Below are positions 85-12,716 of a stretch of DNA of 64,000 nt, piece after piece. The first letter of the stretch is position 1; each line of letters begins with the position of its first letter. Under the pieces are notes generated by a model, which saw only the letters and a list, made by a program, of their open reading frames with translations, was not told the origin of the DNA and did not search any database. The stretch lies in the NCBI RefSeq assembly GCF_013122565.1, contig NZ_CP053258.1. One strand, 5' to 3'. Origin of the DNA: Escherichia coli. GTDB taxonomy: Bacteria; Pseudomonadota; Gammaproteobacteria; Enterobacterales; Enterobacteriaceae. Both the position numbers and the translations under genes were made by a program.

Positions 85-2073
85 TTGCGCGTAAGTCGCT
101 CGTTAACAATCAAGCAGATGGCAATGGTGGCAGCCGTTGTCCTGGTGTTCGTTTTTATTTTTTGCACCGTTTTGCTGTTCCATCTGGTCCAGCAGAATCG
201 CTATAACACGGCTACGCAACTGGAAAGCATTGCTCGCTCTGTCCGCGAACCCTTATCTTCAGCTATTTTGAAAGGCGATATTCCCGAAGCGGAAGCTATT
301 CTTGCCAGCATTAAACCGGCTGGCGTGGTCAGCCGTGCCGATGTAGTGCTGCCTAACCAGTTCCAGGCGCTGCGTAAAAGATTTATTCCAGAGCGTCCGG
401 TGCCGGTAATGGTTACTCGCCTGTTTGAGCTACCGGTTCAAATCTCGCTGGGCGTCTACTCGCTCGAACGTCCGGCAAATCCGCAGCCAATTGCCTATCT
501 GGTGCTACAGGCGGATTCCTTCCGTATGTATAAGTTCGTGATGAGCACCCTCTCAACGTTAGTGACCATTTACTTACTTTTGTCGCTTATCCTGACCGTC
601 GCCATCAGCTGGTGTATTAATCGACTGATTTTACATCCGTTACGCAATATTGCTCGCGAACTTAACGCCATCCCTGCCCAGGAGCTTGTTGGTCACCAAC
701 TGGCATTACCACGTCTGCATCAGGATGATGAAATCGGTATGTTGGTGCGCAGTTACAACCTTAACCAGCAATTGCTGCAGCGCCATTATGAAGAACAGAA
801 CGAAAATGCGATGCGCTTCCCGGTGTCGGATTTGCCGAACAAAGCCTTGCTGATGGAGATGCTGGAGCAGGTTGTCGCGCGTAAACAAACCACCGCGCTG
901 ATGATCATCACCTGTGAAACCCTGCGTGATACTGCGGGCGTGCTGAAAGAGGCGCAACGAGAAATTCTGCTGCTGACGCTGGTGGAAAAACTCAAATCGG
1001 TACTGTCGCCACGTATGATCCTCGCGCAGATTAGCGGTTATGACTTTGCTGTCATTGCCAATGGTGTACAGGAACCGTGGCACGCAATCACCTTAGGTCA
1101 GCAAGTGCTCACTATCATGAGCGAGCGCCTGCCGATTGAACGTATTCAACTCCGTCCGCACTGTAGCATTGGCGTGGCGATGTTCTACGGCGATCTCACC
1201 GCCGAACAGCTTTACAGTCGCGCTATTTCTGCGGCATTTACCGCTCGCCATAAAGGCAAGAATCAGATTCAGTTCTTTGATCCGCAGCAGATGGAAGCCG
1301 CCCAGAAGCGGTTGACGGAAGAGAGCGATATCCTTAATGCACTGGAAAATCATCAGTTTGCTATTTGGTTACAGCCACAGGTCGAGATGACCAGCGGTAA
1401 ACTGGTCAGTGCGGAAGTGTTACTGCGTATCCAGCAACCGGATGGCAGTTGGGACCTGCCGGATGGCTTAATCGATCGCATTGAGTGCTGTGGGCTGATG
1501 GTTACCGTCGGTCACTGGGTGCTGGAAGAGTCCTGTCGATTGCTTGCAGCCTGGCAAGAGCGCGGCATTATGCTGCCCTTGTCGGTAAACCTCTCTGCGC
1601 TGCAACTGATGCACCCAAATATGGTGGCGGATATGCTGGAACTGTTAACCCGCTATCGCATTCAGCCGGGAACACTGATTCTGGAAGTGACAGAAAGCCG
1701 ACGTATTGACGACCCTCATGCTGCGGTGGCAATCCTCCGTCCGCTGCGCAATGCCGGAGTTCGGGTGGCGCTGGATGATTTCGGCATGGGCTACGCAGGG
1801 CTGCGTCAGCTGCAGCATATGAAATCGTTGCCAATCGACGTACTGAAAATCGACAAAATGTTTGTTGAAGGCTTGCCGGAAGATAGCAGCATGATTGCTG
1901 CAATTATCATGCTGGCGCAGAGCCTGAACTTACAAATGATTGCCGAAGGCGTGGAGACTGAAGCACAACGCGACTGGCTGGCAAAAGCGGGCGTTGGTAT
2001 TGCCCAGGGCTTCCTTTTTGCTCGCCCACTCCCTATTGAAATCTTCGAAGAGAGTTACCTGGAAGAAAAGTAG
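85..2073 (+). CDS. pdeK: c-di-GMP phosphodiesterase PdeK (YhjK), membrane-anchored HAMP / degenerate GGDEF / EAL protein
   Basis: 662-aa ORF with hydrophobic N-terminus; C-terminal EAL-type domain (EVLLR variant); no canonical GGDEF motif; position upstream of dctA. Start uncertain: ORF opens with TTG at 85, first ATG at 118. Confidence 0.85.
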
Positions 2074-2219: not shown

Positions 2220-3542
<1,323 letters not shown>

Positions 3543-3556
3543 TCTCATCACTTATG

Positions 3557-3588
3557 CCCGCACTCCCTTCCCCGAGTGCGGGTGTTTG
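3557..3588 (+). terminator. Putative intrinsic terminator of dctA
   Basis: GC stem cccgcactc / gagtgcggg with 8-nt loop followed by tgtttg, 15 nt after the dctA stop. Confidence 0.5.
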
Positions 3589-3762
3589 CGCATAATTGAC
3601 CCCTGTGCCTGAACTTACCACCTGGGTGAGTTCAGGTTTATTTCACTTCTTCCGTGACATTTTCATGTTCTTGCGGTCTAACACGAAGTGTTTTTAACGT
3701 CATTTAGACTGACCGACAACGGGCAGTTTTTTTATTACCAGGATAGTTGATCAGGGGTTCAC

Positions 3763-5259
3763 ATGCAGGGCACAAAAATTCGACTTTTAGCGGGCGGTTT
3801 GCTGATGATGGCCACTGCTGGCTATGTGCAGGCAGATGCGCTCCAGCCTGATCCAGCATGGCAACAGGGGACGCTTTCCAACGGTTTACAGTGGCAAGTG
3901 CTGACCACCCCCCAGCGTCCCAGCGATCGTGTTGAAATTCGCCTGCTGGTTAATACCGGTTCGCTCGCCGAAAGTACACAACAGAGCGGGTACAGTCACG
4001 CCATCCCTCGTATTGCGCTAACGCAAAGCGGTGGCCTTGACGCAGCACAGGCGCGTTCATTGTGGCAGCAGGGGATCGACCCTAAACGCCCTATGCCGCC
4101 GGTAATTGTCTCTTATGACACCACGCTGTTTAATCTGAGTTTGCCCAATAACCGTAACGACTTGCTGAAAGAAGCGCTCTCTTATCTGGCAAATGCCACT
4201 GGCAAACTGACCATCACACCAGAAACCATCAACCACGCGCTGCAAAGTCAGGACATGGTGGCAACCTGGCCTGCCGATACTAAAGAGGGCTGGTGGCGTT
4301 ATCGTCTGAAAGGATCAACCCTGTTAGGTCACGATCCTGCCGATCCGCTGAAACAACCCGTTGAAGCGGAAAAAATTAAAGATTTCTATCAGAAATGGTA
4401 CACCCCGGATGCAATGACGCTGCTGGTGGTGGGAAACGTTGATGCGCGCTCGGTCGTCGACCAAATCAACAAAACGTTTGGCGAACTGAAAGGCAAACGT
4501 GAAACGCCAGCTCCGGTGCCGACGCTTTCTCCGCTGCGTGCGGAAGCGGTGAGTATTATGACTGACGCGGTGCGTCAGGACCGGTTATCTATCATGTGGG
4601 ATACGCCGTGGCAGCCGATTCGTGAATCAGCCGCACTGCTGCGCTACTGGCGTGCGGACCTGGCCCGTGAGGCGCTGTTCTGGCATGTTCAGCAAGCGTT
4701 AAGCGCCAGTAACAGCAAAGACATCGGTCTTGGATTTGACTGCCGTGTGCTGTATCTGCGTGCGCAGTGTGCCATCAACATCGAATCACCAAACGACAAG
4801 CTGAACAGCAACCTTAATCTGGTGGCGCGTGAACTGGCGAAGGTTCGCGATAAAGGTCTGCCGGAAGAAGAGTTCAATGCGTTAGTGGCGCAAAAGAAAC
4901 TGGAGCTGCAGAAACTGTTTGCCGCCTATGCGCGAGCTGATACCGATATTCTGATGGGCCAGCGGATGCGTTCGTTGCAAAATCAGGTTGTCGATATCGC
5001 GCCGGAGCAATATCAGAAACTGCGCCAGGATTTCCTTAATAGCCTGACGGTAGAGATGTTAAATCAGGATCTGCGTCAGCAGTTGTCGAATGATATGGCA
5101 TTAATACTGCTGCAGCCTAAAGGCGAGCCGGAATTTAACATGAAAGCGTTGCAGGCGGCCTGGGATCAAATCATGGCCCCATCTACCGCCGCTGCGACCA
5201 CCTCTGTCGCCACGGATGACGTACATCCTGAAGTTTCGGATATTCCACCCGCACAGTAA
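3763..5259 (+). CDS. yhjJ: YhjJ, periplasmic M16-peptidase-family protein (probably non-catalytic)
   Basis: 498-aa ORF with N-terminal signal peptide (MQGTKIRLLAGGLLMMATAGYVQA); M16-like N-terminal region reads SHAIPR where active enzymes have HxxEH. Confidence 0.85.
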   Translation: MQGTKIRLLAGGLLMMATAGYVQADALQPDPAWQQGTLSNGLQWQVLTTPQRPSDRVEIRLLVNTGSLAESTQQSGYSHAIPRIALTQSGGLDAAQARSLWQQGIDPKRPMPPVIVSYDTTLFNLSLPNNRNDLLKEALSYLANATGKLTITPETINHALQSQDMVATWPADTKEGWWRYRLKGSTLLGHDPADPLKQPVEAEKIKDFYQKWYTPDAMTLLVVGNVDARSVVDQINKTFGELKGKRETPAPVPTLSPLRAEAVSIMTDAVRQDRLSIMWDTPWQPIRESAALLRYWRADLAREALFWHVQQALSASNSKDIGLGFDCRVLYLRAQCAINIESPNDKLNSNLNLVARELAKVRDKGLPEEEFNALVAQKKLELQKLFAAYARADTDILMGQRMRSLQNQVVDIAPEQYQKLRQDFLNSLTVEMLNQDLRQQLSNDMALILLQPKGEPEFNMKALQAAWDQIMAPSTAAATTSVATDDVHPEVSDIPPAQ

Positions 5260-5266
5260 TAAATAA

Positions 5267-5298
5267 CCCGGCAGCGTTTCTTCTGCGCTGCCGGGATT
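5267..5298 (+). terminator. Putative hairpin terminator after yhjJ
   Basis: Stem cccggcagcg / cgctgccggg directly after the yhjJ stop; weak T tract. Confidence 0.4.
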
Positions 5299-5457
5299 AA
5301 CGGTAATGAATAAGTTGCCGTGATATACCCGCAGAGATTTTTCCAGGCACGGCGGTAGCGTGCAGATAACCATTCATTATTAGAATAAACTTACGGCTGT
5401 GTGAGTTTAATTATTTATTGGCTGAATAAATTGCCAGGAAATAGATGGTGTTAAATA

Positions 5458-5718
5458 ATGGCCTATCATATAGAAATATGGGAAATTGAAGAAACTGATA
5501 AAGTAGTAAAATATGAATTTGGACCTATATCTTCTGACTATTGTAGATCTGATTACGGCGAGTTCGTGATAGATAAAAGAACGGGGGAGATGACATTAGT
5601 CAGACTGGTTAAAAACGATTCGGCTAATAAATTTTATTTGCGAGCGAGTTTTAAGATTCTGACCTGTTGGCGAAAGGGCTATTTGCCAAAAACAAGGAAT
5701 GAGCTTCTTAATAAGTAA
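5458..5718 (+). CDS. Hypothetical small protein (86 aa), AT-rich accessory ORF
   Basis: ATG-initiated ORF, very low GC, first of five co-directional small ORFs; no family recognised. Confidence 0.4.
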   Translation: MAYHIEIWEIEETDKVVKYEFGPISSDYCRSDYGEFVIDKRTGEMTLVRLVKNDSANKFYLRASFKILTCWRKGYLPKTRNELLNK

Positions 5719-5779
5719 CTTTGCATAATAAGTGAATTTTCCCATTTTTGGGGGGCAGTCGTTGATTCTTACACAGTTT

Positions 5780-6028
5780 ATGTTATGGGTGCAGAAAAAC
5801 ACTGGGCATAATATTAAAAGCAATGCCAATACCTTATCAACCAGCATAGTTATTGATTTTGATAATGATATCCATATTGCCAGATTTACAGGTTGGGATG
5901 ATTTAAGTTGTATGTCAGAAGTTATATGCGTTGAATCGGGTGATTATAAATTAAATCAGCGAAATGAATTCCATACTTATGATTCGCTAAGGATAATATT
6001 TGATGCTTTAATAGAAAGCATACAGTAA
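5780..6028 (+). CDS. Hypothetical small protein (about 82 aa from first ATG; 98 aa if non-ATG start at 5732)
   Basis: ORF in the same AT-rich cluster; start codon unclear and no convincing RBS. Confidence 0.3.
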   Translation: MLWVQKNTGHNIKSNANTLSTSIVIDFDNDIHIARFTGWDDLSCMSEVICVESGDYKLNQRNEFHTYDSLRIIFDALIESIQ

Positions 6029-6088
6029 CTTTTTTCTTAGTAAGAAAATAATATACACGAGTATATCTAATTAAATTTAGGATAGGCT

Positions 6089-6568
6089 ATGGATTTTCAC
6101 CTGGATATTTTGCTCCCTACACGTTTCGCTCCAGAGGAACTAGATCTACAAGAGGTTATGGTTCACTGGGGTGGGGAAACCTTTCATCGCGACCCTCCTG
6201 TATACGCCTGGTGTAATCATTATCTCTTGCAGAGATGTAATATACCGATTACTTATGGCCAACCTTTAGATGAGCACATAGACTTTAATGAATACCATAT
6301 TTACAACTTCAATGGTTCTATAGTCGATGAGCTGGAAATGGCTGTGAATAAAGGAAAGGATATTTCAACCGATCCTATAATTAAAATTATTAACAACCTG
6401 ATTAGCAAAAAGTACAGGGGGTGGTTAATCTTGTCATTAGATGATGAAAAAATAGAAGTAATTAAAAATATAAGTTCCCAGTGTTCTTTTCAATCGTTAT
6501 TAGTTGATGGACTAAAATGGGAAAGACCACATGGGGTGGCAATATTATATAATTCACACTTAATTTAA
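6089..6568 (+). CDS. Hypothetical protein (159 aa), AT-rich accessory ORF
   Basis: ATG start preceded by aggatagg RBS-like sequence; no recognised motifs. Confidence 0.45.
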   Translation: MDFHLDILLPTRFAPEELDLQEVMVHWGGETFHRDPPVYAWCNHYLLQRCNIPITYGQPLDEHIDFNEYHIYNFNGSIVDELEMAVNKGKDISTDPIIKIINNLISKKYRGWLILSLDDEKIEVIKNISSQCSFQSLLVDGLKWERPHGVAILYNSHLI

Positions 6569-6585
6569 TTAATGAAAGGAAACAT

Positions 6586-6888
6586 ATGTATCGTGCAAAG
6601 GTTGTTTGGCTTACAGATAAAGAAGGTGGTAGAAGGAGCGCTCCTCCCATCGGTAGATACTATCCCGTCTCCAGATTTCCAGAGGAGCAAACTGACTGGC
6701 AAAATAATGCATGGAGTGTTGTTTTTGAATTGGAAAAACCTAATGTAACCGATGGACGTATCGTTTCAATGGGGGGCGTTCAGTTCCTTTTCGATACTGC
6801 CCCTGCACAATGGATGACTAAGTACGAGGCATTTGAAATCTACGAAGGACCAAGAAAAGTCGCAGATGTATTCTTGATAGAAAATTAA
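6586..6888 (+). CDS. Hypothetical protein (100 aa)
   Basis: ATG start preceded by aaaggaaa RBS; 17 nt after the previous ORF stop, suggesting an operon. Confidence 0.45.
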   Translation: MYRAKVVWLTDKEGGRRSAPPIGRYYPVSRFPEEQTDWQNNAWSVVFELEKPNVTDGRIVSMGGVQFLFDTAPAQWMTKYEAFEIYEGPRKVADVFLIEN

Positions 6889-6948
6889 TTTTATTTATGT
6901 CAGTCAATTTAAGCATATTTGCGACTCAACGCATGTTCAGGAGTGTAA

Positions 6949-7482
6949 ATGCGCTACAAAAAAGTCATGCTATTATTGCTAACAGTCATTCTTTGCTTAA
7001 CCGGTCTTTATTCCTGCAACAAAAATTTTCTCTTACTCTGGGATGCCAATAATATTTATGTCAGTACAAAAAATAATATCGATAAAGACAAGGTGAAAAT
7101 AGAATTCGGCATCAGCGTCAACACGATCAACCGAGAAACGGATGCCGAATTATTTGCTGACAGAGATAAGTATACCGTGCTCTTCGATGGTAGCCTGAAA
7201 AGCAAGATGATAAACGAGTACGGCGAAAATGATTTTTTAATTACCTACGATGACCGCTGCTATTTATCATTTCGTCAATTTAAAACCAATCGTCGTCATC
7301 AACATGACTATTATTTTTACTTCTTTAACAAGGATGGGAATGTCTTCGTCACGGTCGAAATTAAAGGTGAGAACCCGCTTAAATTTACACGTAGTTTAAA
7401 TGATATGCGTCAGCAGTTTTCACCATTCCGTAAGGGTAGCACTTCTCACTCCTGCAAGGTTATTTCTTCAGATCCTTCTTAA
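6949..7482 (+). CDS. Hypothetical putative lipoprotein (177 aa)
   Basis: ATG with aggagtg RBS; N-terminal signal-like sequence ending LTGLYSC (lipobox-like cysteine); 3' end overlaps the convergent lipoprotein gene by about 23 nt. Confidence 0.45.
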   Translation: MRYKKVMLLLLTVILCLTGLYSCNKNFLLLWDANNIYVSTKNNIDKDKVKIEFGISVNTINRETDAELFADRDKYTVLFDGSLKSKMINEYGENDFLITYDDRCYLSFRQFKTNRRHQHDYYFYFFNKDGNVFVTVEIKGENPLKFTRSLNDMRQQFSPFRKGSTSHSCKVISSDPS

Positions 7483-9502
7483 ACACTGGTTCTGGACAAT
7501 CACGACCAAAATGCGCAGCCCAGTCAAAAAATTTACCGTTTTTCACGTAGCGTTGATAAATTAATGCACCGGTTTCTGGATCAAGATATCTGACCCAACT
7601 TGCAGCATGGCATAAGACGGCAGCCCATGCTTGGGTTTTAGGGTGAAGTAAATAGGCAGATTGTTCGGCCCATTCCGCAGCCTGCCAGCGGTAATGCAAA
7701 AAGTGATCATCAGCGGTGGGGATCGCGTGGCGAATACGTTTATTTTCTTTACGACTTATCCATTGATCGTTATTGCTGTATTCAAAGGGGGACGAATATT
7801 GCCCGCTGGTAATGGCATAATCGGGATACATTTCATAAGCCACTAATTCGATACCACTGAAACGCAAAAGCCGCGCAGCTTCGTATTGTGCCTGGGCGCG
7901 TTGCTTATCAGGGATGTTTTTATTTTTCGCTATCGCCATTAAATCAGCCAGTTTTTGTGCGGCCTGGCGATAATTGGGAATATCAAACCAATTGATGGCC
8001 TGCTGATATTGACCATGACGTATTAATCGTCTCCCTAATAGCGCACGTAATTTAACATCCGTTGGAATGATATCTGGCGAAATATAATAACCGTAATTGC
8101 TATTGTTTAAATCTACAGGTTTTAAAGGGTGCTGAGGTGCCGGTACGTTGTTTTCAACAAACGCCTGTAACTCCGGCAAGGTCAAAACGTTTTCTGCAAC
8201 CCAGGCTAAATCGGCCCAATAGAGATCTTTCGCCTGGTAAAACAATGCAGCCGCCTGAAGATAATCATCGCGTTTTAATGCTAAAATCGCCTGCTCACTG
8301 GCAATACGGCAAGATGGGATAGTAACTTTATCTCCATGATAATAAGGGCTTTCCTGGTCCATACTTCCCCACATTTCATCGGTCGGGAACAGCGGGACTG
8401 CGCGAGCATAGTGACGCGTTGCCAGTGGAATATCTCCGGCTCGTAATGCCATTTTTGCTTTTAACCATTCGCTTAATCCACTTTCTGGCGCATCCTCCAA
8501 CAGCGTTTGTGCTAACGAATAATTTCCTGCCCGATACGCCAGTGCTGCCAGTCGATCGCTATAACTAAATCCTTTAACTCTGTGTTGACTTAGCAACTTA
8601 ATTAAACGGTCGCGATGCGTTGGACAGGTATAATCTACAAGGTCTTCAGTACAGGCTTCGCTAACATACCCCCAGTCATGACGAATAAAGAGCTCTGCGA
8701 TTACCAGTTGCTGAACCAGTGGATCATCAATAACCGATTCCAGCAGTGGTAAATTTTTCTCCCTGGTTAGATATAGCGAAATCATTCGTAACGAAGCTTT
8801 CCCGGAGGGCGAACCCTGGGCCGCTTGCCGGGCATAAATTTTTACTGCCGCAGCGACATCACCTTTTTTCAGATAATAATGCCCAATCTGACCGAGACTG
8901 GCGAGAGAGAGCTGCTCAGGATCGGCTGCGCCATTACGGACCTCTTCAATGATTTGCTGATAACGTTGTATGGCCTGCTCAGCAATTTCCTGATTAAAGC
9001 CGCCTTTATTGATTATAAGATCGAGATTGTCGTCAGTGGCATCAAATCCCCCTCTTGCCAGACTATATAGCGCAGCAAGACGCCATTCCCCTTGCTCTGT
9101 TTTCGGTAAGGCTAATAATTGCTGAAAGTAAGGGCTATCGTATTTTCCCTGATGAAAATCCTTAGCTCCTGAATAATAAAGCCACTGCGCATCAGATAAT
9201 GGTTTCTGCAATTTTTGCGCGATTTCCAGTGACCTATTTTGCACAGGAGACTCAGCATCATCATCTGTATTTTCCTGCGTTGCCTCCGCGGGCGTATTTT
9301 CATGCCATATTGGTAAACCAGGATCGCGTTTAGCCAACTGTTGTACTTCAAAGACAAAACTGCCATTTGGCATTTCCAGCAGTGCGCTATTGCGGTCAGT
9401 TAACAGATGGTTAGGAATAAATGGTCCACAGGCATTAACATTGGCGCTAATTAGTGAGAGAAATACAATAACGGAAATCCGCGATCTATTAGGGGATAAC
9501 AT
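7460..9502 (-). CDS. Putative outer-membrane/periplasmic lipoprotein with TPR/Sel1-like helical repeats (about 681 aa)
   Basis: Long ORF; most plausible start is the ATG preceded by aaggagag RBS giving MLSPNRSRISVIVFLSLISANVNAC (signal peptide plus lipobox-like Cys); several degenerate A/Y/L-rich helical repeats. Function unknown. Confidence 0.6.
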   Translation of the reverse strand: MLSPNRSRISVIVFLSLISANVNACGPFIPNHLLTDRNSALLEMPNGSFVFEVQQLAKRDPGLPIWHENTPAEATQENTDDDAESPVQNRSLEIAQKLQKPLSDAQWLYYSGAKDFHQGKYDSPYFQQLLALPKTEQGEWRLAALYSLARGGFDATDDNLDLIINKGGFNQEIAEQAIQRYQQIIEEVRNGAADPEQLSLASLGQIGHYYLKKGDVAAAVKIYARQAAQGSPSGKASLRMISLYLTREKNLPLLESVIDDPLVQQLVIAELFIRHDWGYVSEACTEDLVDYTCPTHRDRLIKLLSQHRVKGFSYSDRLAALAYRAGNYSLAQTLLEDAPESGLSEWLKAKMALRAGDIPLATRHYARAVPLFPTDEMWGSMDQESPYYHGDKVTIPSCRIASEQAILALKRDDYLQAAALFYQAKDLYWADLAWVAENVLTLPELQAFVENNVPAPQHPLKPVDLNNSNYGYYISPDIIPTDVKLRALLGRRLIRHGQYQQAINWFDIPNYRQAAQKLADLMAIAKNKNIPDKQRAQAQYEAARLLRFSGIELVAYEMYPDYAITSGQYSSPFEYSNNDQWISRKENKRIRHAIPTADDHFLHYRWQAAEWAEQSAYLLHPKTQAWAAVLCHAASWVRYLDPETGALIYQRYVKNGKFFDWAAHFGRDCPEPVFKKDLKK

Positions 9503-10694
9503 TGAACTCTCCTTGTATTTTTTTATTGCAGCGCGCCCATCCCAGCGGACTGCTTTCTCCGGCACGCAGCTGCCTGTCGCTTATCCTTACAAAATGCAGG
9601 CTGGATGAGCCAGGTTGCACCTGATAGTGGCTTACTCCATCAGCGAATAGACAATCTGCATTGGGCAGAATTATTTGTTTTGGCAACGGCGCATCAATTA
9701 CGCCGCTGTTTTTAAAGGCCAGATCAAAAAGTTGCTTGTCTGTATGTTGAGTAATTATTAACGACCAGCGCGGAGTCAGCGGTTGATGTCGAATCACGGC
9801 TTCCAGTGTTGTCAGTGACCAGGCGCGGCGATCGCCTGCTAACGGTAGCCGAAACCATACCAACCCCTGTAATCCACGCGGTGGTTGCTGTTCTATATAT
9901 TGAATAAACTCGGCAATCGTTTGTGGAGATACACTTAGTTCTTGCATTTCATCAGCAACGTATAGCGGGGATTCGCTTTCGACACGATTATCACTGGTGA
10001 GTGCGGAGCCATAAGCGGGCAATGCGATGAAAAAAGGGTGCGTGGTTTGCCTGGCATATTGCTTTACCCAACGCTGCGCCAGACTGACATCTAACAGGCC
10101 TTTTTCGGGCGACAGCACGTTATGTACCTGGAAAACCGAAGTGTCCGCAATCCGCAATAATCGAGCGAGATGTGGTGATTCAAGCCAGGTGGGCAGGGCG
10201 GTAACGCTGAGTTTTAGATTTGTGGGAAGTGCCTGATGTAACGCACTAAGTAGGGTCTGATATTCCGGCAATTTTGCTGTTGGCGCGTCATAATCAATTT
10301 CCACCCCTGCCAGTGTAATACCTGCGTTTTGCCACTCACGTTGGGTTTGTTGAATATGCTGTATTATTTGCTGGTTATTAAGCCCTGTTAGCTGACCATC
10401 GAGTCGCGCGACCAGCCAGACCGGGCGACCATCCTGCTTAATAAGCGAAGTATTCACCGCAAAATGTCGGATGCCTTCCTGTAGATGAAATTGCATCCCG
10501 AGTATGCGCAGTGTAGAAAAAAGTGAACGGCTTTGTTTTAGAGCGCTGGTATGTTCTGCTGTCCATACACGTTGCCAGATATAGGCTTGCTGATCAAAGC
10601 GAAGCGGCTGTGAGGGGGTAAATAAATTATGCAGCCCATAACCCAGGCAGATCAGAAGAAGTGAAGCTGCAATAATCCTTTTGCAAGATGGCAT
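9489..10694 (-). CDS. Putative secreted or membrane-anchored protein (401 aa), DUF3142-like by recollection
   Basis: ORF with N-terminal hydrophobic segment (RIIAASLLLICLGYGL); stop overlaps the start of the downstream lipoprotein gene by about 14 nt, suggesting translational coupling. Confidence 0.6.
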   Translation of the reverse strand: MPSCKRIIAASLLLICLGYGLHNLFTPSQPLRFDQQAYIWQRVWTAEHTSALKQSRSLFSTLRILGMQFHLQEGIRHFAVNTSLIKQDGRPVWLVARLDGQLTGLNNQQIIQHIQQTQREWQNAGITLAGVEIDYDAPTAKLPEYQTLLSALHQALPTNLKLSVTALPTWLESPHLARLLRIADTSVFQVHNVLSPEKGLLDVSLAQRWVKQYARQTTHPFFIALPAYGSALTSDNRVESESPLYVADEMQELSVSPQTIAEFIQYIEQQPPRGLQGLVWFRLPLAGDRRAWSLTTLEAVIRHQPLTPRWSLIITQHTDKQLFDLAFKNSGVIDAPLPKQIILPNADCLFADGVSHYQVQPGSSSLHFVRISDRQLRAGESSPLGWARCNKKIQGEFNVIP

Positions 10695-10788
10695 ATTGTC
10701 ACGGCATAACGATCATCAACAGGGCGGTAGTGTACTGCCGAAACTATTAACGGAGAACGAATATCTACCCGTTCTCCGTCAAAAACCA

Positions 10789-11718
10789 TTATGCAGGCAT
10801 TGCTTCACGCGGGATAATCGCGCCGCGATACTGAATAACGGTACTTGCGGTCAGGTGCCCGCGTTTCGCCGCGTCTTCCGCACTGCCGCCCGTCAAACGT
10901 ACCGCCAGATAACCGGCACTGAAAGAGTCGCCAGCTGCGGTGGTATCGATCACTTTTTCTTTCGGCAGTTTCACCGCTGGAACATCCACTAACCCTTCGC
11001 CAGCAATAGACACCAGGCAAGAATCCGCCCCGCGTTTCACCACCACTTCTTTCACGCCCGCGTTATGGGTGCGCGCAATGACGTCTTCCACCGGCTGTTG
11101 ACCCCACAGCGCGTCTTCATCGTCCAGCGTCAGGAAGGCGATATCCGTGCATTCCAGCATTTGTTGGTACACCTGCTGTGTCTCTTCTTTGCTGGCCCAC
11201 AGGCGCGGACGATAGTTATTGTCGAAAATCACTTTTCCGCCGTTGGCGCGGCATTCGCGCAGCAGGGAAAGCAGCTTTTCGCGGCTGGTCGGGCTTAAGA
11301 TCGCCAGGCTAATCCCGCTCAGGTAGAGATAATCGAAATTCGCCAGCTCTGCACAAATCGCCGCAGACTGCTCGCTCTCCAGCCAGAATTTGGCAGCGGC
11401 TTCGTTACGCCAGTAGTAGAACGTACGTTCGCCGGTGCTGTCGGTTTCAATGTAGTAAAGGCCCGGCAGACGGTTTTCCATCCGTTGGGTCAGGGAAGTA
11501 TCAACGTTCTCGCCGTGCCAGGCGTCCAGCATCTGCTGGCTAAAACTGTCCGTTCCCAGCGCCGTTACGTAATGAACGGTTAATGCCGCAGGATCGACCT
11601 GACGGGCGATATAGACGGAAGTGTTCAGGGTATCGCCGCCGAAACCGCGCTTAACGTCCGCGCCTTTCTCGGAAAGCTCAATCATGCATTCGCCAATCAC
11701 GGCAATCTTTTTGGACAT
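10789..11718 (-). CDS. kdgK: 2-dehydro-3-deoxygluconokinase KdgK
   Basis: 309 aa from MSKKIAVIGECMIEL; PfkB-family sugar kinase; the ORF track extends 28 codons further upstream. Confidence 0.9.
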   Translation of the reverse strand: MSKKIAVIGECMIELSEKGADVKRGFGGDTLNTSVYIARQVDPAALTVHYVTALGTDSFSQQMLDAWHGENVDTSLTQRMENRLPGLYYIETDSTGERTFYYWRNEAAAKFWLESEQSAAICAELANFDYLYLSGISLAILSPTSREKLLSLLRECRANGGKVIFDNNYRPRLWASKEETQQVYQQMLECTDIAFLTLDDEDALWGQQPVEDVIARTHNAGVKEVVVKRGADSCLVSIAGEGLVDVPAVKLPKEKVIDTTAAGDSFSAGYLAVRLTGGSAEDAAKRGHLTASTVIQYRGAIIPREAMPA

Positions 11719-11948
11719 AGTCGTGAACCTGATCTGTAAAAAATTAGCGTTAGTTTGCGCTGTGGTGGTTTGCTGGTCAACCATATTAAAACAGTGTTCC
11801 ATTATTTTTTTGAGCCAGAACGTATTCCTGAAAGATTCCGTTGTAGAGGGGGAAATTTACCCCGGCCAGGCGGTAAAGTTCTGCCCTTGCGCGCCGATAA
11901 TCTTTGTCGAGTCCGGGCAGCATCACTTTTAAACACAGGACATCTTTG

Positions 11949-12716
11949 ATGATAAGGCAGGTTATCCAGCGAATAAGCAACCCTGAAGCAAGCATCGAGA
12001 GCTTGCAGGAACGGCGTTTTTGGTTGCAGTGTGAGCGTGCTTACACCTGGCAGCCGATCTATCAAACATGCGGACGGTTAATGGCCGTGGAGCTATTAAC
12101 GGTGGTCACGCATCCCTTGACCCCTTCGCAACGCCTGTCGCCGGATCGCTATTTTACTGAAATCACCGTCAGCCATCGGATGGAGGTTGTGAAAGAGCAG
12201 ATTGATTTGCTGGCGCAAAAAGCCGACTTCTTTATAGAACACGGCCTGCTGGCATCGGTCAATATTGATGGCCCTACGCTCATCGCTCTGCGTCAGCAAC
12301 CAAAAATCCTGCGCCAGATTGAGCGTCTTCCCTGGCTGCGTTTCGAACTGGTGGAACACATCCGTCTGCCGAAAGATTCAACCTTTGCCTCGATGTGTGA
12401 ATTTGGCCCGCTGTGGCTGGATGATTTTGGTACCGGGATGGCAAATTTCTCTGCGCTAAGTGAAGTGCGTTATGACTACATCAAAATCGCGCGAGAACTG
12501 TTTGTGATGCTGCGTCAGTCGCCGGAAGGCCGCACACTCTTTTCTCAGCTTTTACATCTAATGAATCGCTATTGTCGCGGGGTGATTGTCGAGGGCGTAG
12601 AAACACCGGAAGAGTGGCGTGATGTTCAGAACTCGCCCGCATTCGCCGCACAAGGCTGGTTTCTTTCACGCCCGGCACCGATAGAAACGCTGAATACGGC
12701 GGTTCTGGCGCTATAA
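11949..12716 (+). CDS. pdeH: c-di-GMP phosphodiesterase PdeH (YhjH), EAL-only protein
   Basis: 255 aa from MIRQVIQRISNPEA; EAL domain with ELL variant motif. Confidence 0.9.
   Translation: MIRQVIQRISNPEASIESLQERRFWLQCERAYTWQPIYQTCGRLMAVELLTVVTHPLTPSQRLSPDRYFTEITVSHRMEVVKEQIDLLAQKADFFIEHGLLASVNIDGPTLIALRQQPKILRQIERLPWLRFELVEHIRLPKDSTFASMCEFGPLWLDDFGTGMANFSALSEVRYDYIKIARELFVMLRQSPEGRTLFSQLLHLMNRYCRGVIVEGVETPEEWRDVQNSPAFAAQGWFLSRPAPIETLNTAVLAL

Follow-up and report, generated by a model that had tools for sequence, protein, structure and literature searches.

The closest described system to the locus analysed here is the Escherichia coli protein YhjJ as characterized by Park et al. (PNAS 2025; PMC11789061), who found in an alignment with PqqL and PtrA that it is without the HxxEH motif and who renamed it BipP. 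[quoted passage not shown] The role of BipP as a non-proteolytic brake on NlpI–Prc is therefore already known (PMC11789061), and this function has been echoed in a 2026 review (PMC13204101) and in PMC12569750.

Several lines of evidence have been reported for this function. In vitro, neither NlpI binding nor inhibition was detectable with the wild-type protein, and it is a hyperactive triple mutant (N130K/N225K/Q284R) that delays the in vitro degradation of the three hydrolases by Prc when this is NlpI-dependent, but not when it is NlpI-independent (PMC11789061). The triple-mutant protein pulls down NlpI, and Prc only via NlpI, and it is displaced from NlpI by MepS, MltD and MepH (PMC11789061). 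[quoted passage not shown] The effect of BipP is lost upon substitution D30R, A32F or A390D in BipP itself, or R28D or I32Y in NlpI; more specifically, suppression in vivo is abolished by D30R and A32F, and A390D is a loss-of-function mutation (PMC11789061). A low-resolution cryo-EM map contains extra density where the model predicts it, and the basis for the interface is the AlphaFold model, the point mutants and this low-resolution map, not an atomic structure (PMC11789061). The authors have proposed that the in vitro assays lack a signal, one that would make BipP–NlpI binding stronger when endopeptidase activity is low, and their tests with peptidoglycan (PG) and PG fragments were negative (PMC11789061).

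The closest active relatives with solved structures are PqqL and the Pectobacterium protein FusC (6b03), with which YhjJ can be aligned over their N-terminal halves (PqqL over residues 27–444, FusC over about 10–243). All three proteins are periplasmic, and in the analysis by Grinter et al. their clusters lie near each other (PMC6071955). In contrast to YhjJ, PqqL and FusC have an intact HxxEH motif and intact downstream glutamates as well as two additional M16 domains (~930 aa in all), they share only ~16–25% identity with it, and their genes are linked to TonB-dependent receptors (TonB-dependent import systems). As functional analogies, the BipP authors have named EnvC and NlpD, which have degenerate LytM (M23) domains, and YejM, an antagonist of LapB–FtsH (PMC11789061). 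Like BipP, each of these controls an envelope enzyme by binding, as an anti-adaptor or as an enzyme homologue that has lost catalysis. However, the folds and targets are unrelated to those of BipP; EnvC and NlpD activate amidases, and YejM blocks the contact between adaptor and protease, whereas BipP blocks that between adaptor and substrate.

In this study, we followed up a first-pass annotation of a 64,000-nucleotide stretch of an E. coli genome (assembly GCF_013122565.1, contig NZ_CP053258.1; the whole stretch is referred to below as the window). This annotation had read the yhjJ product not as an active peptidase but as a pseudo-protease or binding protein of the periplasm, a reading that is correct but already published. 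The identity of the protein, the loss of its metal site, its M16 fold and the conservation of its pocket come from the present analysis, and NlpI binding, substrate competition, in vitro inhibition (by the hyperactive protein only) and the genetic phenotypes come from Park et al. (2025).

Results

Identity and locus of the gene

3763..5259, + strand: yhjJ (bipP) coding sequence, a single ORF of 498 aa plus stop with an ATG start
3607..3647, + strand: terminator-like hairpin with a T-rich tail, 3' of dctA and between dctA and yhjJ (13-bp stem followed by TTATTTCACT)

The gene in the window is E. coli yhjJ, which has been renamed bipP. Its product matches YhjJ of E. coli K-12 MG1655 (b3527) at 496 of 498 residues, and the two changes, V466A and T492S, are located at the end of the last helix and in the disordered C-terminal tail of our AlphaFold2 model, respectively. 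This near-identity, together with the position beside dctA, assigns the protein to the BipP orthologous group. The strand opposite 3763..5259 is rich in stop codons. The order of pdeK (85..2073, coding for an EAL/GGDEF/GAPES3 protein), dctA (2256..3542, a dicarboxylate symporter) and yhjJ is that of K-12, and the 220-bp region between dctA and yhjJ is identical to the K-12 sequence; the hairpin within it probably acts as a terminator. On the other side, yhjJ is followed by an island of small ORFs, a gene for a DUF3142 protein and kdgK (PfkB kinase), and the low-GC island between yhjJ and kdgK distinguishes this strain from K-12. DNA of yhjJ was found in 5422 of 5426 complete E. coli genomes at 95–99% identity, where it is labelled 'yhjJ: M16 family metallopeptidase'.

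The metal site

3997..4011, + strand: remnant of the HxxEH zinc motif, H79-A-I-P82-R83 (the codons translate to HAIPR)
4243..4266, + strand: remnant of the downstream ExxxxxxE segment, Q161...T168, opposite E162...E169 of PtrA and E160...E167 of PqqL

It had been claimed in the first-pass annotation, which quoted the string SGYSHAIPRIALTQSG (residues 75–90 of YhjJ), that the second histidine and the glutamate of HxxEH are absent, and this was borne out in three independent alignments. With phmmer, HAIPR aligns with the HxxEH of GVAHFVEHMMF in PqqL (6oft). When the protein was aligned by MAFFT with K-12 PtrA (H88-Y-L-E91-H92) and K-12 PqqL (H80-F-V-E-H84), a comparison with pitrilysin- and PqqL-type proteins that the annotation had itself called for, HAIPR again lay opposite HxxEH, and its placement was the same in a MAFFT alignment with 14 further HxxEH-bearing M16 proteins from a representative library. 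The first histidine is thus kept as H79, the catalytic glutamate has become P82 and the second histidine R83. Further downstream, where active enzymes have E-R-x-x-V-x-x-E, YhjJ reads Q161-S-Q-D-M-V-A-T168. The loss of this downstream glutamate pair had not been mentioned in the first-pass annotation.

In PtrA, the zinc ligands are H88, H92 and, as the third ligand, E169, with E91 as the catalytic residue; the HYLEH motif at residue 88 was seen in our MAFFT alignment. Judged by the MAFFT alignments, YhjJ has other residues at four of the five positions that serve metal binding and catalysis in M16 enzymes. A pattern search for H..EH or HE..H (HxxEH or HExxH) across all 498 residues gave no match, and an intact motif elsewhere in the protein, which would have spoken against the annotation, was accordingly found nowhere. 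The argument on the metal site is based on alignments, and because the catalytic glutamate, the second histidine and both downstream glutamates are replaced, it predicts that YhjJ cannot bind a catalytic zinc.

Conservation across the clade

The replacements are shared by the close relatives of the protein. Among 116 full-length close orthologues from Escherichia, Shigella, Salmonella, Citrobacter, Enterobacter, Klebsiella, Lelliottia, Kluyvera, Trabulsiella and other genera, HxxEH is missing in every one, with H79 present in 114, P82 in all 116 and R83 in 115. The eight more distant members of ~500 aa have WLIPQ, SLISK, HLLAR, HLLSQ, HLLTK, FSLFK, VQLIK and TLTPR at the motif, that is W, S, H, F, V or T at position 79, P, S, A, T, F or I at position 82 and Q, K or R at position 83; to judge from these strings, none of them would form a zinc site. 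In our alignment of the clade (A1), none of positions 79, 82, 83, 161 and 168 belongs to the columns that are invariant or nearly so. Such a pattern would be expected for a catalytic site that was abandoned long ago, not for one that has been remodelled. For the active outgroups, the downstream glutamate segment was misplaced by MAFFT --auto, and those two columns were read from local-pair alignments.

When 1.84 billion cluster representatives were searched exhaustively with HMMER, the scores broke sharply: about 10 full-length representatives of ~480–520 aa scored 257–457 bits at 34–45% identity, and the next full-length matches below the break were PqqL/FusC-type proteins of ~930 aa with at most 120 bits.

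M16 homology and fold

3898..4236, + strand: degenerate N-terminal M16 domain, PF00675 (aa 46–158; 27.5 bits against a cut-off of 22.3)
4360..4893, + strand: second M16 domain, PF05193, 'Peptidase M16 inactive domain' (aa 200–377; 86.9 bits against a cut-off of 23, E = 2e-24)

Both M16 Pfam domains of YhjJ exceed their gathering scores, the N-terminal match being weak; on a presumably active relative from Plesiomonas, which is described below, PF00675 scores 78.5 bits as compared with 27.5 for YhjJ. The NCBIfam models YfmF and YfmH were also considered, and were set aside as uninformative at sub-threshold scores of 26 and 23 bits (cut-offs 285 and 250). The best phmmer match among solved structures is 3go9 from Yersinia pestis (E = 2e-198), followed by PqqL (6ofs/6oft) and FusC (6b03/6b05/6brs) with E values between 4e-18 and 1e-16. 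The protein in 3go9 is an orthologue from another genus, which carries the degenerate string H-L-L-P-R in the manner of HAIPR; this structure came from structural genomics, was released in 2009 and is titled 'predicted insulinase family protease'.

An AlphaFold2 model of YhjJ, which was built from a 20-sequence alignment, has a mean pLDDT of 86.5 and a pTM of 0.83, with disorder only at residues 1–23 and 476–498. When it was compared with the PDB by Foldseek, 3go9 came first (E = 7e-66, TM 0.88/0.96, 62% identity) and the N-terminal half of PqqL second (E = 2e-27, TM 0.74–0.80), and the output contained hundreds more M16 chains, including MPP and cytochrome bc1 core proteins. The match between YhjJ and the M16 family is not due to chance, because both Pfam scores are above gathering and the Foldseek E values for solved M16 structures run from 7e-66 to 1e-17. 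Structure prediction, which was among the checks suggested in the first-pass annotation, agrees with the M16 relationship, and the modelled fold can be regarded as securely that of a two-domain alpha/beta M16 half-clamshell.

Export, envelope features and sigma-E

3763..3834, + strand: predicted Sec signal peptide (aa 1–24, cleavage after VQA and before D25; read from the sequence)
4741..4770, + strand: invariant cysteine pair C327 and C336 (invariant in A1; on the adjacent strands 322–330 and 333–341 of the model)
3655..3681, + strand: weak candidate sigma-E promoter TGACATT-N15-TCTAA (from a consensus scan; perfect -10, -35 matching at 4 of 7 positions)

At the N-terminus, where the first-pass annotation had seen a signal peptide, the sequence is of the Sec type in form: K5 and R7 precede the hydrophobic stretch LLAGGLLMMATAG (core residues 8–20), there is a V at -3 and an A at -1, and no lipobox cysteine was seen on inspection of the N-terminal sequence. 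Residues 1–23 have pLDDT values below 50 in the AlphaFold2 model, and A24 is nearly invariant in the clade (A1). C327 and C336 could plausibly form a disulfide bond across a beta-hairpin in the periplasm, since neither varies and the hairpin places them on neighbouring strands.

In E. coli, sigma-E raises the expression of yhjJ 8-fold (PMC2731931), and in Salmonella there is a high-affinity sigma-E ChIP site at yhjJ that lacks a recognisable consensus (PMC4577112). In the 220-bp intergenic region of the window, a consensus scan found, besides the candidate at 3655..3681, only a GAACTT in the dctA terminator hairpin that has no usable -10, and we tentatively propose that the former may be a sigma-E promoter. 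The signal-peptide form, the cysteine pair and membership of the sigma-E regulon all fit with an envelope location of YhjJ.

The NlpI pocket

3850..3903, + strand: N-terminal part of the NlpI pocket, D30, A32, Q34 and L47 (residues from the model of Park et al., 2025)
4927..5007, + strand: C-terminal part of the NlpI pocket, Y389, A390 ... P414, E415 (residues from the same model)

All eight pocket residues in the window protein are the same as in K-12, and so are the three positions of the hyperactive allele, N130, N225 and Q284. In the clade as a whole, three of the eight (D30, L47 and E415) do not vary and the other five (A32, Q34, Y389, A390 and P414) reach at least 90% conservation, and in PqqL-type proteases the pocket residues are not conserved. 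That the pocket is kept while the metal site varies points to selection on the binding surface of BipP, with the metal site drifting. The clade-wide conservation of the pocket thus lends independent support to the published BipP–NlpI interface.

A relative with an intact zinc site in Plesiomonas

Plesiomonas shigelloides has an M16 protein of 943 aa (P0131/P0273, WP_435132562.1), which scored 325 bits, within the high-scoring group of the HMMER search despite its length, and represents a cluster of 241 sequences. The N-terminal half of this protein shares 36% identity with BipP over residues 1–467 and keeps the ALQPDPAW N-terminus and seven of the eight NlpI-pocket residues, the only change being Q34 to Leu. 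Unlike BipP, however, it combines an intact HFLEH motif and an intact AERGVILGE segment with a further M16 half. Neighbour joining on the N-terminal halves unites the degenerate proteins in one monophyletic clade and places the Plesiomonas protein as its sister, both groupings being recovered in 100 of 100 bootstraps. We considered whether it might be the positional orthologue of yhjJ and rejected this, as its gene is not at a dctA locus and adjoins a thioesterase gene, pldA and recQ. A sister with an intact zinc site suggests that a single loss, basal to the BipP clade, removed the zinc site and the C-terminal half, and that the NlpI-docking surface may predate the inactivation.

Discussion

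Taken as a whole, the explanation that we consider very likely is that YhjJ is BipP, an M16-fold protein without a zinc site that regulates by binding NlpI. According to this explanation, the protein would be exported to the periplasm, where it would fold as a two-domain M16 (pitrilysin/insulinase) half-clamshell and act by binding and not by catalysis. A pocket formed by the mature N-terminus (D30, A32, Q34 and L47) together with Y389, A390, P414 and E415 would take in R28 of NlpI, an outer-membrane lipoprotein whose N-terminal helix carries this residue, and NlpI-bound BipP would then compete sterically with the peptidoglycan hydrolases MepS, MepH and MltD. Delivery of these hydrolases to the tail-specific protease Prc would become less efficient, and their levels would rise when DD-endopeptidase activity is limiting. 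The replacement of four of five site residues and the lack of conservation at these positions in the clade support the view of YhjJ as a periplasmic pseudo-protease or binding protein, and the same conclusion has been reached experimentally (PMC11789061).

This explanation could be extended if the former substrate cleft still binds a ligand. The clefts of M16 proteins take up extended peptides through beta-strand addition, and a peptide or muropeptide that reports low cross-link cleavage might occupy the cleft and switch BipP to its NlpI-binding conformation; the dead M16 cleft may, in other words, be the receptor for a low-endopeptidase signal. This would be consistent with invariant columns outside the NlpI pocket, for example W33, W44, W178, R181, TPD at 214–216, W283 and W296 (A1), which are many and more than a simple plug might need. 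It would also accommodate the inactivity of wild-type BipP in vitro and the missing signal proposed by the authors, whose PG and PG-fragment tests, however, were negative (PMC11789061). The conserved residues may, on the other hand, only maintain the fold, and a mechanical cue is equally possible, so that we regard a sensor function of the cleft as rather unlikely.

A second possibility is that YhjJ belongs to a heterodimeric M16B protease as the subunit without catalytic activity and closes the clamshell of an active partner, in the manner of MPP-alpha or of the inactive subunits of the Sphingomonas A1, PA0371/PA0372 and TTHA1264/1265 proteases. The two-domain size of ~50 kDa and the fold are indeed like those of M16B subunits, inactive ones included (Foldseek matches to 3ami, 4nnz, 7v4y and 1hr6, TM 0.56–0.62). 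However, no M16 gene adjoins yhjJ, and a search for an HxxEH-bearing M16 partner gene near it gave none in the window neighbourhood or in K-12. To our knowledge, and as far as we checked this in part, the only other M16 proteins of E. coli are PtrA and PqqL, both of which are self-contained four-domain enzymes. The nearest relatives by sequence and fold are, moreover, the N-terminal halves of four-domain proteases of the PqqL/FusC type and not M16B subunits, and a different partner, NlpI, has been established experimentally (PMC11789061). We therefore think it very improbable that YhjJ serves as such a subunit.

That YhjJ is still an active metallopeptidase with a non-canonical metal site, for instance one made of H79 and other ligands, can hardly be credited at all, even though H79 is kept in nearly all close orthologues, databases call the protein an 'M16 family metallopeptidase' and protease screens include it as a candidate periplasmic protease, since the catalytic glutamate is a proline throughout the 116 orthologues and both downstream glutamates are gone, H79 itself gives way to W, S, F, V or T in distant members so that no metal site is conserved, neither HxxEH nor HExxH occurs elsewhere in the protein, and BipP acts non-proteolytically with NlpI and Prc levels unaltered (PMC11789061).

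With YhjJ understood as an NlpI-binding pseudo-protease, the remaining value of the present work lies in correcting how databases name the protein and in what Plesiomonas suggests about its evolution. The names 'M16 family metallopeptidase', 'insulinase family protein' and 'pitrilysin family protein' under which the protein is listed in RefSeq and UniRef are misleading, and protease screens still count YhjJ among the proteases. As to its evolution, BipP may have originated once from a PqqL-like four-domain periplasmic protease by loss of the C-terminal half and the zinc site, with NlpI docking being older than the inactivation, although we give this scenario as a whole a low probability. If it is true, the 943-aa protein of Plesiomonas would combine M16 protease activity with docking on NlpI, and NlpI would have had, or in Plesiomonas would still have, a second protease client besides Prc. 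The presumably active sister in Plesiomonas offers a way to ask how a protease turned into an anti-adaptor.

Relatives of BipP

A relative of the degenerate BipP clade, the M16 proteins of about 500 aa that lack a zinc site, is a longer protein from Plesiomonas shigelloides:

L004 (P. shigelloides CP195150.1), 8001-10832: four-domain M16 protein of 943 aa (WP_435132562.1)

The two were recovered as sisters in 100 of 100 neighbour-joining bootstraps. The Plesiomonas protein has an intact zinc motif (HFLEH) and keeps seven of the eight residues that have been assigned to NlpI binding in BipP (Park et al., PMC11789061). Its gene adjoins an OmpA-like gene and thioesterase-pldA-recQ.

Sequence context of yhjJ

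Closely following the stop codon of dctA and preceding the terminator-like hairpin, the sequence itself shows an inverted repeat rich in GC (GCCCGCACTC...GAGTGCGGGT, 3557-3584). This repeat could form a second stem-loop or represent a REP-like element. The highest DNA identity found for positions 3500-5400 among 5426 complete E. coli genomes was just 98.0%, and therefore the lineage of this strain seems to be poorly represented among them; despite this, the YhjJ protein is approximately 99.6% identical to that of K-12.

From the yhjJ stop codon (5259) towards the DUF3142 gene and kdgK, the window holds a variable island (approximately 5300-9800) of low GC content (35-46%), whereas in K-12 the gap between yhjJ and kdgK is only about 95 bp. 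Positions 5260-12000 are covered to at least 80% in only two of the 5426 genomes, at just 89.6% identity, and other E. coli genomes carry at the island 'TPR protein / DUF3142 / hypothetical' variants that differ from the one described here. ORFs in this region include:

5458-5718 (+): small ORF
5732-6028 (+): 98-aa ORF, match to Pfam PF24689
6089-6568 (+): small ORF
6586-6888 (+): small ORF
6949-7482 (+): small ORF
7460-9565 (-): 701-aa ORF without a Pfam match, adjoining the DUF3142 gene
9489-10694 (-): DUF3142 protein, 401 aa (DUF3142 match, 252 bits)

The two minus-strand genes lie within the island or at its edge. The PF24689 match ('Immunity protein TriTu') scored 61 bits, and the four small ORFs beside it on the same strand had no match in Pfam. 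The plus-strand run as a whole (5458-7482) resembles an orphan immunity gene array derived from a polymorphic-toxin system.
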